Part shown: positions 5,441-11,400 of the stretch, one piece after another
Position numbering within the stretch: position 1 is the stretch's first letter
How the letters are laid out: each line of letters starts with the position of its first letter
DNA from: Planctomycetota bacterium
GTDB taxonomy: Bacteria > Planctomycetota > UBA1135 > GCA-002686595
NCBI GenBank assembly: GCA_039821985.1
Contig: JBCBNC010000003.1
Location: 71,219 to 95,218 of the forward strand
Direction of reading: 5' to 3'
DNA length: 24,000 nucleotides
Translations under genes and position numbers: made by a program
The notes under the pieces: model-generated
Told to the model about the DNA's origin: nothing
Databases searched by the model: none
The model's input: only the letters and a program-made list of their open reading frames with translations

Positions 5441-6367
5441 TCAGCGCACCTGACCGAAGAGTCTCAGATGCCGCCGTGTGACCTCGACCCAGGTCAGGAA
5501 GTCGATCGTGCCGAATTCTTCGTCGATCGCGGGCGGCCCGAGCACCCGCGCGCCGTGGCGCAGGTAGCTCGCGAACAGCTTGGGCACTTCGACCTCCTCG
5601 ACCTCGGTGCCCGGACGAACGGGCCAGTCGAGCAGCGGGCACGCGAGCGCGAGACGCGGCGGCGCGTGGTACTCGGGGTGGACCAGGCCGTCGCGCACGA
5701 GCTTGGCGTAGAGCGCCACGCCCTTCGCGGGGTCGGTGCCGGTGAGCGAGCTGCAGCCGAAGAACGCCTTGACGCCGTTGTGCTGCGCGTAGGCGATGAG
5801 CCCGTGCCAGAGGAGGAACAGGACCGTGCGGTCGCGATGCGCGCGGGCGACGCAGGCCCGGCCGAGCTCGGCCGCGTCCTCCAGGATCTCGGGCGGCAGC
5901 CCGCCGAGCTCGAATTCGCCGGCCGTGTACCAGCCGTGCCCGGTGCGCGCCGATTCGGCCACCTGCATCCGGTACGTGCCGACGACCGCGCCGGACGCGG
6001 CTTCGATCACCATCAGGTGCTGGCACTGGCGGTCGAACGCGTCGGCGTCGAGGCCGGTCTCGTGGGCGCCAGCGAGGCCCTCGCCCATCTCGACGTTGAA
6101 GACGGCATAGCGCAGCCTGCGGACGGACTCGAGGTCGGCGTCCGTCCGGGCGAAGCGCAGCTGGTACTTGCCCAGCGCGACGTCCGTGTCGGGCGCGAGG
6201 TCGAGGCGGTCGAGCAGGGTGCTTCCGCGGGGGGAGTCGTTGGCGGCGGACAAGGTGCGGTGGCGCGGGGTGCCAGTGCTGAGCGGGGAGGGGACGTCGC
6301 TCAGTGCGGGGAAGGGACGAGCCAGTGACGACCGAGTTGATACCCCAGCGCGTGGAGCGCGGCGCAT
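5441..6367 (-). CDS. GNAT-family N-acyltransferase of the OlsB / hemolysin-like N-acyl amino acid synthase type
   Basis: The C-terminal ~245 aa carry YQLRFARTDADLESVRRLRYAVFNVEMGEG, GTYRMQ and ELGRACVARAHR, typical of the OlsB/GlsB/NAS branch (Pfam PF13444, ID from memory). The ATG overlaps the upstream stop (TGATG, shared base 6367). The N-terminal ~60 aa are low complexity, so the true start is uncertain. Confidence 0.8.
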   Translation of the reverse strand: MRRAPRAGVSTRSSLARPFPALSDVPSPLSTGTPRHRTLSAANDSPRGSTLLDRLDLAPDTDVALGKYQLRFARTDADLESVRRLRYAVFNVEMGEGLAGAHETGLDADAFDRQCQHLMVIEAASGAVVGTYRMQVAESARTGHGWYTAGEFELGGLPPEILEDAAELGRACVARAHRDRTVLFLLWHGLIAYAQHNGVKAFFGCSSLTGTDPAKGVALYAKLVRDGLVHPEYHAPPRLALACPLLDWPVRPGTEVEEVEVPKLFASYLRHGARVLGPPAIDEEFGTIDFLTWVEVTRRHLRLFGQVR

Positions 6368-10480: not shown

Positions 10481-11400
10481 GAGGACGTGGTCGCGGAGGG
10501 CCCGGTGGGGGTCCGGGAGGGGGTGAAGACGCTCCGCACGGACTCGTGTGCGGCGAGTGCGAGGTGCTTGCGTCGGCCCGTGCCGTCCGCGTCGAAGGAC
10601 GCCTCGGCGGCCGCGAAGGTTACGGTGGCGACGGTTCGCCGCTGTTTCAAGAACTGATAGAAATGGGGGCCGAAGGTGGCGTCTCCCCACCAGCAGACGC
10701 CCTGCCAGGCTGGCAGCGGCCCGCCGGGGGAGTCGTAGTGGATCGCCGCGCACTGCACAGGCAGCCCCAGTTCGACCGGGACCTGGAACAGTGACGGCTT
10801 GAAGGGCTCGACCGCGGCGCCGTCCGTGCTCGTGCCCTCCGGGAAGACGATCACTCCGGTCCCCCGCGCGAGGACCGCGCGGATCTCGCCGATGGCCCGG
10901 GTCAGGTCGCGCTTGCGGCTCCGGTCGATGAAGAGGGTTCCGGTGGTGCGCGCGAGCAGGCCCATGACGGGCCAGCCCGCGATCTCGGACTTCGCGAGGA
11001 ACCGCGCGTCCAGCCGCGCGAGCATCAGCGGGATGTCGACGTACGAGAGGTGATTGGCGACGAGGAAATAGCTGCCCGTCGGCCGTGGCCCCTCGAACCG
11101 CGCTCGGACGCCCATGATCCAGAGCATGGCCCAGGCCCAGGTGCCGATGAAGGCGCGCTGGAGAAGAGGGTCGAGCCGGGGCACCGCCCATGCGAGGGGG
11201 CGCGTAAGGACCCAGCCTGCGTACAGCGGAGGCGTCGTCGCGACGATCGCGAGGAGTCGGAGAGGAGCGCGGAGCGGCACGGGAGACGATGCGCGGAGCG
11301 CCGACAGGGTGACGAAGCGACCTCGGCGGGCGCAAGTGCGGACTGGGCTCCGAGCGTGTGGCGCGGGTGGCGGAAGGGGTCGGGCCGCGGTCCGCGCCAC
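10477..11400 (-). CDS. Lysophospholipid / 1-acyl-sn-glycerol-3-phosphate acyltransferase family protein (PlsC/OlsA-like O-acyltransferase)
   Basis: Acyltransferase motifs are present: NHLSYVD (HX4D), FLAKSE, FPEGTSTDG, and an N-terminal hydrophobic helix (LRLLAIVATTPPLYAGWVL). The GTG start at 11400 is uncertain because the N-terminal 30 aa are Arg/Pro-rich. Confidence 0.85.
   Translation of the reverse strand: MARTAARPLPPPAPHARSPVRTCARRGRFVTLSALRASSPVPLRAPLRLLAIVATTPPLYAGWVLTRPLAWAVPRLDPLLQRAFIGTWAWAMLWIMGVRARFEGPRPTGSYFLVANHLSYVDIPLMLARLDARFLAKSEIAGWPVMGLLARTTGTLFIDRSRKRDLTRAIGEIRAVLARGTGVIVFPEGTSTDGAAVEPFKPSLFQVPVELGLPVQCAAIHYDSPGGPLPAWQGVCWWGDATFGPHFYQFLKQRRTVATVTFAAAEASFDADGTGRRKHLALAAHESVRSVFTPSRTPTGPSATTSS

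Follow-up and report, generated by a model that had tools for sequence, protein, structure and literature searches.

A conserved planctomycete operon couples OlsB/OlsA-like acyltransferases to a hydrolase-DedA-ATP-grasp fusion protein and probably yields a modified amino-acid lipid

Ornithine and glycine lipids are made in two steps, by an OlsB/GlsB-type GNAT N-acyltransferase and a PlsC-type O-acyltransferase (OlsA/GlsA). What, then, is made by an operon that encodes such a pair together with enzymes of quite different kinds? This question is raised by a 24,000-nt stretch of DNA (hereafter the window; GC content ~72%) from a Planctomycetota bacterium (contig JBCBNC010000003.1 of GenBank assembly GCA_039821985.1), in which five open reading frames (ORFs) on the minus strand fill positions 5441-11400, packed in the order PlsC, DinB, NRDE, fusion protein and GNAT. 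We read the operon as OlsBA-type aminolipid synthesis to which an undescribed module for modification and translocation has been added. With somewhat more confidence than doubt, we propose that this conserved operon makes, modifies and translocates an aminolipid, and its product is probably, judging from the encoded proteins, an undescribed modified amino-acid lipid. The features concerned are as follows.

10477-11280, minus strand: PlsC-type O-acyltransferase, OlsA-like, likely 267 aa (PF01553, NCBIfam OlsA models, motifs)
9833-10480, minus strand: DinB-fold protein with a three-histidine site, 215 aa (Pfam matches of orthologues, invariant histidines)
9021-9845, minus strand: NRDE/TANGO2-family protein, 274 aa (PF05742, Cys2, NRDE motif)
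6367-8994, minus strand: tri-domain membrane protein (the fusion), 875 aa, with transmembrane (TM) anchor, alpha/beta hydrolase, DedA/VTT and ATP-grasp (Pfam, NCBIfam, homologues)
8920-8985, minus strand: N-terminal TM anchor of the fusion, residues 4-25 (hydropathy scan)
8104-8829, minus strand: alpha/beta-hydrolase domain of the fusion, PlaF-like, residues ~56-297 (PF00561, catalytic triad, profile match to 6i8w)
7465-8019, minus strand: DedA/VTT membrane domain of the fusion, residues ~326-510 (PF09335, hydropathy)
6370-7464, minus strand: ATP-grasp ligase domain of the fusion, residues 511-875 (AlphaFold2 model, Foldseek, invariant motifs)
5441-6367, minus strand: OlsB-like GNAT N-acyltransferase, 308 aa (PF13444, NCBIfam OlsB models, AlphaFold2 fold)

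All five ORFs are real genes, each with strong homologues and with Pfam or NCBIfam matches, and the domains that a preliminary description had assigned to them all hold in Pfam and NCBIfam scans or, for the ATP-grasp domain, in the predicted structure. The four gene junctions reported in that description lie, upon re-reading of the sequence, exactly where it had placed them. The PlsC stop and the DinB start share an ATGA at 10477-10480, the DinB stop (9833) and the GTG start of NRDE (9845) overlap by 13 nt, the NRDE stop (9021) is followed by a 26-nt gap with a GAGG and then by the ATG of the fusion (8994), and in a TGATG the base 6367 is common to the TGA of the fusion and the ATG of the GNAT gene. 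The part to be amended is the PlsC start, which had been set at GTG 11400 (the longest ORF, 307 aa): GTG 11280, giving 267 aa, is probably the true start, because the alignment of the 267-aa orthologue in a related locus (L003) begins at residue 43 of the window PlsC. With this start, the gap to the upstream extracytoplasmic function (ECF) sigma factor gene widens from 106 nt to ~226 nt. The same ATGA and 13-nt overlaps are found in L003, where the fusion is 61% identical to that of the window, and overlapping or near-abutting junctions appear again in independently called contigs of other lineages. A sigma-70 promoter scan found no promoter-like site, and a terminator scan returned only five weak terminator-like matches, none of them at a gene boundary; such an outcome is to be expected of a planctomycete with 72% GC.

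The two acyltransferases define the starting point of the proposed pathway. The GNAT protein matches PF13444 (Acetyltransf_5) over residues 85-188 (97.9 bits, cut-off 22.4), and its best NCBIfam matches are the OlsB models NF052554 (124.9 bits versus a cut-off of 350) and NF052555 (121.7 versus 320), to both of which it aligns over nearly their whole length, though below the equivalog cut-offs. In its AlphaFold2 model (mean predicted local distance difference test score, pLDDT, 87.4) the first ~45 residues are disordered, and the top PDB folds are the N-acyl-homoserine lactone (AHL) synthases BjaI, LasI and MesI (E 6e-7 to 7e-6), folds which we take to be the structural neighbourhood of long-chain N-acyl amino-acid synthases. 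As modelled, the protein has this AHL-synthase/long-chain N-acyl-amino-acid-synthase type of GNAT fold; with full-length OlsB families as its best matches, it agrees with the OlsB/NAS type to which it had been assigned. A sequence search of the PDB with the GNAT protein gave no match, and its relatives go by the database names 'GNAT family N-acyltransferase' and 'putative hemolysin'. The PlsC protein matches PF01553 (72.3 bits, cut-off 23), its best NCBIfam matches are the OlsA models NF052552 and NF052553 (141.1 and 114.6 bits, cut-offs 300), and it carries both motifs claimed for it, the HX4D motif (as NHLSYVD) and FPEGT. The earlier assignment of the pair to the OlsB/OlsA type thus stands as regards best-scoring families, domains and motifs, whereas the equivalog cut-offs are missed by far. 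Because of these low scores the label should stop at 'OlsB/OlsA-like', which the sequences justify; 'ornithine lipid synthase' is not justified.

The 875-aa fusion protein has more than 120 full-length homologues at 48-68% identity, among them that of Saltatorellus ferox (64%), the closest named cultured species among the matches; a further protein, P0001, is 99% identical to it. The database name of its relatives is the generic 'alpha/beta fold hydrolase'. Its N-terminal anchor is preceded by R3 and K6 and followed by E26 and E29. The hydrolase domain matches PF00561 with 98 bits, and its catalytic residues are intact: Ser144 (the nucleophile, within GFSMGG), D248 and H277 are invariant in the alignment of 16 sequences from which all invariant residues of the fusion were called. 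Searched against the PDB, the family profile scores best with 6i8w, PlaF (E 1.3e-25), profile positions 20-309 being aligned to PlaF residues 9-316, most of the N-terminal helix of PlaF included; when the window sequence alone serves as the query, other esterases score equal to or above PlaF. In Pseudomonas aeruginosa, PlaF sits in the inner membrane as a phospholipase A1 held by one N-terminal helix, its catalytic domain lying in the periplasm (PMC9132575). Like PlaF, the fusion has one TM anchor at its N-terminus and an alpha/beta hydrolase with a Ser-Asp-His triad; unlike in PlaF, this hydrolase is joined to DedA and ATP-grasp domains.

The membrane domain matches PF09335 (VTT; 68.6 bits, cut-off 33.9), and the hydropathy scan places its hydrophobic segments at residues 329-347, 370-388, 453-471 and 494-512. 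Against models of the undecaprenyl-phosphate transporter UptA it scores 56.5 bits (cut-off 250) and 42.2 bits (cut-off 300), and we rejected UptA as an identity for the fusion, since the NCBIfam equivalog cut-offs are not reached. Basic residues precede the first TM segment, acidic ones follow it, and a very basic stretch comes after the last one. Because of this distribution, and by analogy to PlaF, the hydrolase is probably periplasmic and the ATP-grasp domain, which directly follows the strongly basic juxtamembrane stretch, probably cytoplasmic.

Pfam, run on the C-terminal 365 aa of the fusion with E values up to 10, gave no ATP-grasp match, and a single-sequence search of the PDB reached cyanophycin synthetase at E 0.05 only. 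An AlphaFold2 model of the domain, built from a 40-sequence alignment (mean pLDDT 90), was compared with the PDB by Foldseek. The top matches (E 1e-9 to 1e-6, probability 1.0) are cyanophycin synthetases, numerous D-Ala-D-Ala ligases and GshF, the latter in its ATP-grasp half; the D-Ala-D-lactate ligase 1e4e is also among the matches. Besides, K624 (within VLKPxxGQRGSGV), E798 and N800 (within ELNG) are invariant in the 16 sequences, and by motif position rather than by superposition they fit the ATP-binding lysine (K624) and the Mg-binding E-x-N (E798/N800). Two relatives (P0065 and P0114) carry the RimK ATP-grasp domain PF08443, and five more (P0266, P0264, P0278, P0380 and P0331) score 21.1-24 bits against the RimK cut-off of 21. 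Since the model with its Foldseek matches, the invariant motifs and the relatives at the RimK threshold all agree, the modelled domain is an ATP-grasp fold, and the claim that the fusion ends in one is borne out despite the absence of a Pfam match.

Two smaller proteins complete the operon. The window DinB protein scores 23.7 bits against PF12867, just below the cut-off of 24.8; 17 of 20 orthologues match DinB_2 (best E 8.7e-10), and the best PDB match is 3dka, a 'DinB-like protein'. By these sequence comparisons it belongs to the DinB superfamily. The orthologue alignment shows no variation at H50, H144, H148 or a DYDxRxRD motif, and the three-histidine site probably binds a metal. To our knowledge, no member of the TANGO2/NRDE family has an established function. 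The NRDE protein of the window lies above the PF05742 threshold (34.5 bits, cut-off 22.6) and keeps Cys2 as well as the NRDE motif; the N-terminus MCT is found in five of five orthologues whose N-termini are included, and the NRDE motif is invariant in 14. It may be described as a putative Cys N-terminal-nucleophile (Ntn) hydrolase or transferase. The best PDB match of its orthologue profile is human TANGO2, to which it is only distantly related (E 1.6e-4), and it differs from it in being bacterial and encoded inside an operon that is presumably for a fatty-acyl-amide lipid. Human TANGO2 is an acyl-CoA binder (PMC11867700); its active site is like that of Cys-Ntn hydrolases and resembles those of bile-salt hydrolase and isopenicillin N acyltransferase (PMC13044924).

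Is this gene set peculiar to the window? A pattern scan with one genome per species found relatives of the fusion in at least 581 species genomes, with carriers that include Planctomycetota, Acidobacteriota, Gemmatimonadota, Krumholzibacteriota, KSB1 and Verrucomicrobiota and, among cultured organisms, Engelhardtia mirabilis and Rohdeia mirabilis; the strains Pla133 (L028) of the former and Pla163 (L076) of the latter have the whole cluster. We then counted neighbours by tblastn of the window proteins against the 80 best fusion loci, on the same strand as the fusion. A GNAT neighbour is present in 60 of the 80, PlsC in 55, DinB in 48 and NRDE in 29; as eight of the 20 GNAT-negative loci are cut short upstream, GNAT is found in 60 of 72 informative loci. 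As a rule, the genes are arranged as GNAT-PlsC-DinB-(NRDE)-fusion. The core consists of the fusion with GNAT and PlsC, to which DinB and NRDE are frequent accessories. That the set would be conserved together in related genomes had been an expectation of the preliminary description, and the neighbours are indeed kept across phyla in these loci.

Protein fusions point in the same direction. An exhaustive search with the ATP-grasp domain gave 2627 cluster representatives, 1038 of them at E <1e-30, which fall into size classes of ~850-900 aa (hydrolase-DedA-ATP-grasp), ~520-600 aa (several inspected members, of 521-683 aa, being DedA-ATP-grasp) and ~350-390 aa (stand-alone ATP-grasp). P0251, P0290, P0264 and P0331 have the two domains DedA and ATP-grasp, and P0380 and probably P0313 consist of an ATP-grasp domain of this family alone. 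In one metagenomic representative of 1121 aa (P0367), TANGO2/NRDE, alpha/beta hydrolase, VTT and ATP-grasp are united in a single chain, which argues independently for joint action of NRDE and the tri-domain protein. Given the co-conservation in the 80 loci and the P0367 fusion, we rejected a chance juxtaposition of the clustered genes.

The position of the GNAT gene varies between lineages. In the clade of the window the sole GNAT gene lies downstream of the fusion, and L003 has none upstream of PlsC. Another planctomycete contig (L084) encodes two GNAT paralogues that are 51% identical, at 4046-4915 upstream of PlsC and at 12141-12956 downstream of the fusion; the window GNAT is nearer to the downstream copy (61%) than to the upstream one (51%). 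A second, upstream GNAT in the lineage of the window was rejected on account of this relationship and of L003, which lacks an upstream copy. The two L084 copies might differ in amino-acid specificity. On the same contig, a protein with SnoaL-like and GDSL-lipase parts is encoded at 9668-10726 (plus strand), 19 nt downstream of the fusion and on the same strand, and may serve this lineage as one more accessory for lipid remodelling. In a locus from the Bryobacterales (L080), which carries the fusion alone, a KdtA-LpxK fusion gene (Kdo transferase plus lipid A 4'-kinase; 4713-7346, minus strand) lies ~2.6 kb away, with genes for an MFS transporter and an HlyD-family protein in between.

Taken as a pathway, these parts would act in the following way. 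By analogy to OlsB, the GNAT protein would N-acylate an amino acid, probably with a 3-hydroxyacyl group from acyl carrier protein, and the OlsA-like PlsC would esterify a second fatty acid to give an acyloxyacyl aminolipid. The cytoplasmic ATP-grasp domain, held at the membrane by DedA, would then activate a carboxylate as acyl-phosphate and join it to an amine; most simply, this carboxylate would be the free alpha-carboxylate in the head group of the aminolipid. If the amine is a second amino acid, taurine or a similar compound, a lipo-dipeptide or an amide-capped lipid would result. We infer such a ligation from the fold of the domain and from its nearest structural relatives, all of them ligases of amino acids or peptides. 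DedA-family proteins have known lipid-flipping roles, and the DedA domain would accordingly be the candidate for moving the lipid to the outer leaflet. There, if the predicted topology and the PlaF analogy hold, the anchored hydrolase would deacylate or transacylate the lipid from the periplasmic side. The NRDE protein, as a Cys-Ntn enzyme, would most plausibly cleave or transfer a fatty-acyl amide or thioester, and it and the presumably metal-binding DinB protein would be frequent but dispensable accessory enzymes. That the operon builds an N-acyl amino-acid lipid, decorates it with the help of ATP and moves it across the membrane, as had been proposed at the outset, remains the best reading of the domains and their conservation.

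A bolder version of this proposal may be put forward tentatively, and with rather more doubt than belief. The fusion would combine synthase, flippase and hydrolase in one tRNA-independent chain, and it would couple the carboxylate of an aminolipid of OlsBA type to a second amino acid or an amine. The result would be a new class of membrane lipids with peptide or amide head groups, widespread in Acidobacteriota, Planctomycetota and Gemmatimonadota; the kind of enzyme responsible for the ATP-dependent extension of the head group in cerilipin, on biochemical record since the 1970s, would thereby be identified, and NRDE, co-encoded and sometimes fused, would act on the fatty-acyl amide of that same lipid.

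How does such an operon relate to described systems? Aminolipids are major phosphorus-free membrane lipids. A review from March 2026 lists three ornithine lipid routes (OlsBA, OlsF and OlsHI) and five modifications (PMC12971839). It does not mention ATP-grasp, DedA or a flippase, and in its OlsB survey at >=30% identity to validated OlsB, Planctomycetota, Acidobacteriota and Gemmatimonadota are not among the bearers (PMC12971839). Our literature searches found no paper tying aminolipid synthesis to ATP-grasp, DedA, NRDE or DinB, nor anything relevant on the combination of DedA, ATP-grasp and hydrolase. The preliminary description had stated that none of the modules next to the acyltransferases belongs to a described aminolipid route. 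For ATP-grasp, DedA, NRDE and DinB this agrees with the literature searched, while for the alpha/beta hydrolase it does not: the OlsHI pathway of Singulisphaera acidiphila pairs the GH3-like OlsH with an alpha/beta hydrolase, OlsI, as lipid acyltransferase (PMC12493201, PMC12971839). With that pathway the window shares a planctomycete host, an ATP-dependent step and an alpha/beta hydrolase (OlsI being compared by description), but its operon has no GH3-like enzyme, and the user of ATP is an ATP-grasp domain instead of an adenylating enzyme. The likeness to OlsBA and its relatives GluB/OlsA and GlsB/GlsA lies in the pairing of a PF13444 GNAT with a PF01553 PlsC, and the difference in the coupling of this pair to DinB, NRDE and the hydrolase-DedA-ATP-grasp protein.

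A precedent in terms of chemistry is head-group extension. Taurine is transferred in an ATP-dependent manner to the carboxyl group of ornithine lipid to give cerilipin, a reaction for which no gene is known, and lipids with Ser-Gly and Orn-Ser-Gly head groups exist in Bacteroidota (PMC12971839). Both cerilipin (from Gluconobacter cerinus) and the Bacteroidota lipids have a head-group carboxylate extended by an amine or amino acid, as the ATP-grasp domain would do; for cerilipin the likeness is one of reaction type alone, there being no enzyme sequence known, and the hosts here belong to other phyla. A different parallel is offered by MprF, in which a cytoplasmic domain for head-group aminoacylation is fused to a lipid flippase, and by AcvB and PA0919, which are periplasmic hydrolases of aminoacyl-phosphatidylglycerol. 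What the fusion has in common with these is only the logic of aminoacylation, flippase and periplasmic alpha/beta hydrolase: it would use ATP-grasp chemistry in place of aminoacyl-tRNA, a flippase of the DedA rather than the MprF type, and an aminolipid as the likely substrate instead of phosphatidylglycerol.

If our proposal is correct, the operon adds four enzyme types (ATP-grasp, DedA, NRDE/TANGO2 and DinB) that are in none of the described routes, and with carriers in at least 581 species genomes, mainly of abundant, little-cultured soil and sediment phyla, its product is probably a widespread, unrecognised lipid class. It offers a candidate enzyme type for the ATP-dependent head-group ligase that has lacked a gene since 1976-78, as well as a natural case in which a DedA domain shares a chain with enzymes acting on the lipid that it presumably carries. 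Moreover, this bacterial gene context ties the disease-linked TANGO2 family to fatty-acyl-amide lipid metabolism and would, if true, give the first hypothesis on a TANGO2 substrate that is grounded in conserved gene context.

Several points speak against our proposal and have to be weighed with the alternatives. The GNAT and PlsC scores amount to about one third to one half of the NCBIfam OlsB/OlsA equivalog cut-offs, so that they fix neither the amino acid used nor even the kind of acceptor. The fusion occurs without GNAT within 10 kb in 12 of the 72 informative loci, and the two of these that were inspected (L080 and L052) have unrelated neighbours; the fusion is therefore not strictly dependent on adjacent acyltransferases. 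Besides, the topology is deduced solely from where the charges lie and from the likeness to PlaF, the substrate of the ATP-grasp domain is not readable from its fold, and DinB has no assigned role. Some of these points would suit a tRNA-independent counterpart of MprF/AcvB, in which the ATP-grasp domain attaches an amino acid by an ester or amide bond to a phospholipid such as phosphatidylglycerol, DedA flips what is formed and the periplasmic hydrolase takes the modification off again for homeostasis, whereas the OlsBA-like genes make a separate aminolipid and adjoin only since both serve envelope remodelling. The layout of the fusion as synthase, flippase and periplasmic hydrolase would agree with this, as would its occurrence in those 12 loci with neither GNAT nor PlsC adjacent and the fact that some ATP-grasp enzymes form esters, the D-Ala-D-lactate ligase 1e4e being among the structural matches. 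Yet in different phyla the fusion gene is closely linked to GNAT and PlsC, often by translational coupling, the Pfam and NCBIfam scans of the five proteins revealed no MprF-type synthase domain, and the best structural matches are enzymes that make amide bonds at the carboxylates of peptides or amino acids, so that we regard this explanation as unlikely. Less likely still is a secreted N-acyl amino acid or small lipopeptide (a signal, a biosurfactant or a 'haemolysin-like' compound) that DedA would export and the hydrolase and NRDE would mature or degrade. PF13444 and FeeM-type enzymes do make N-acyl amino acids, the GNAT fold is nearest to synthases of AHL signals, and relatives are named 'putative hemolysin'; the OlsA-like PlsC in 55 of the 80 loci points instead to a two-chain, membrane-forming acyloxyacyl lipid, and DedA proteins are known as lipid flippases, not as exporters across two membranes.

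We also considered whether the aminolipid might serve as a carrier in a Dlt-like decoration, being loaded by the ATP-grasp domain and flipped by DedA, after which the hydrolase would transfer the amino acid to an envelope polymer such as lipopolysaccharide or peptidoglycan. The parallel of ligase, membrane translocator and N-terminally anchored extracytoplasmic serine enzyme is suggestive, and the KdtA-LpxK fusion gene near the L080 fusion would fit, but that neighbourhood is a single case and the cluster contains no conserved carrier protein or polymer-specific gene, which makes this scenario quite improbable. At the far end of the scale we would place ordinary OlsBA ornithine lipid synthesis with functionally unrelated neighbours, to which we give hardly any credit. 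OlsB and OlsA are indeed the best family matches of GNAT and PlsC, but with scores so far below the equivalog cut-offs; in addition, the junctions overlap, the extra genes are conserved in the same orientation in Planctomycetota, Acidobacteriota, Gemmatimonadota and other phyla, and the four-domain P0367 protein takes in NRDE. Synthesis, modification and translocation of an aminolipid thus remains the explanation that we prefer.

Whether the operon has a dedicated regulator was a further question, as the preliminary description had suggested control by the ECF sigma gene upstream on the same strand. This gene (11507-14113, minus strand) encodes an 868-aa protein with ECF sigma regions 2 and 4 at residues ~71-227 and an Ala/Gly-rich hydrophobic stretch near residues 283-300, followed by a C-terminal extension of ~570 residues without a Pfam match. 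Among the 80 loci it has four weak, distant matches and none in the closest relatives, and we rejected it as a conserved regulator of the operon; the suggestion thus loses its footing, all the more as other lineages have different regulators in that place. L083 encodes a small ECF sigma factor with a Ser/Thr kinase divergently upstream of the operon (3364-3855, minus strand), and L084 a histidine kinase with a sigma-54 activator directly upstream on the same strand (924-4006, plus strand).

On the other side of the operon, 88 nt downstream of GNAT, lies a gene for a haem-binding protein of the ChaN/Tiki superfamily (4357-5352, minus strand; PF04187, 164 bits), which is found near the operon in six of the 80 loci, all of them close planctomycete relatives. 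TANGO2 proteins have been claimed, controversially, to bind haem, and the proximity of ChaN and NRDE is curious, though it may be a coincidence. Further away on the upstream side, two very long ORFs without a Pfam match overlap each other on opposite strands, one of 1154 aa at 15393-18857 (plus strand) and one of 1438 aa at 17079-21395 (minus strand), and an aldehyde dehydrogenase (PF00171, 329 bits) is encoded at 15021-16724 (minus strand). Beyond the ChaN/Tiki gene, positions 294-4352 hold what looks like an aerobic benzoyl-CoA (box) catabolic set, with these members:

294-1814, minus strand: PaaA/PaaC-like protein
1766-3496, minus strand: enoyl-CoA hydratase-family protein
3564-4352, plus strand: regulator with helix-turn-helix and shikimate-kinase-like parts (NF006015, 'anaerobic benzoate catabolism transcriptional regulator', 269 bits versus a cut-off of 204)

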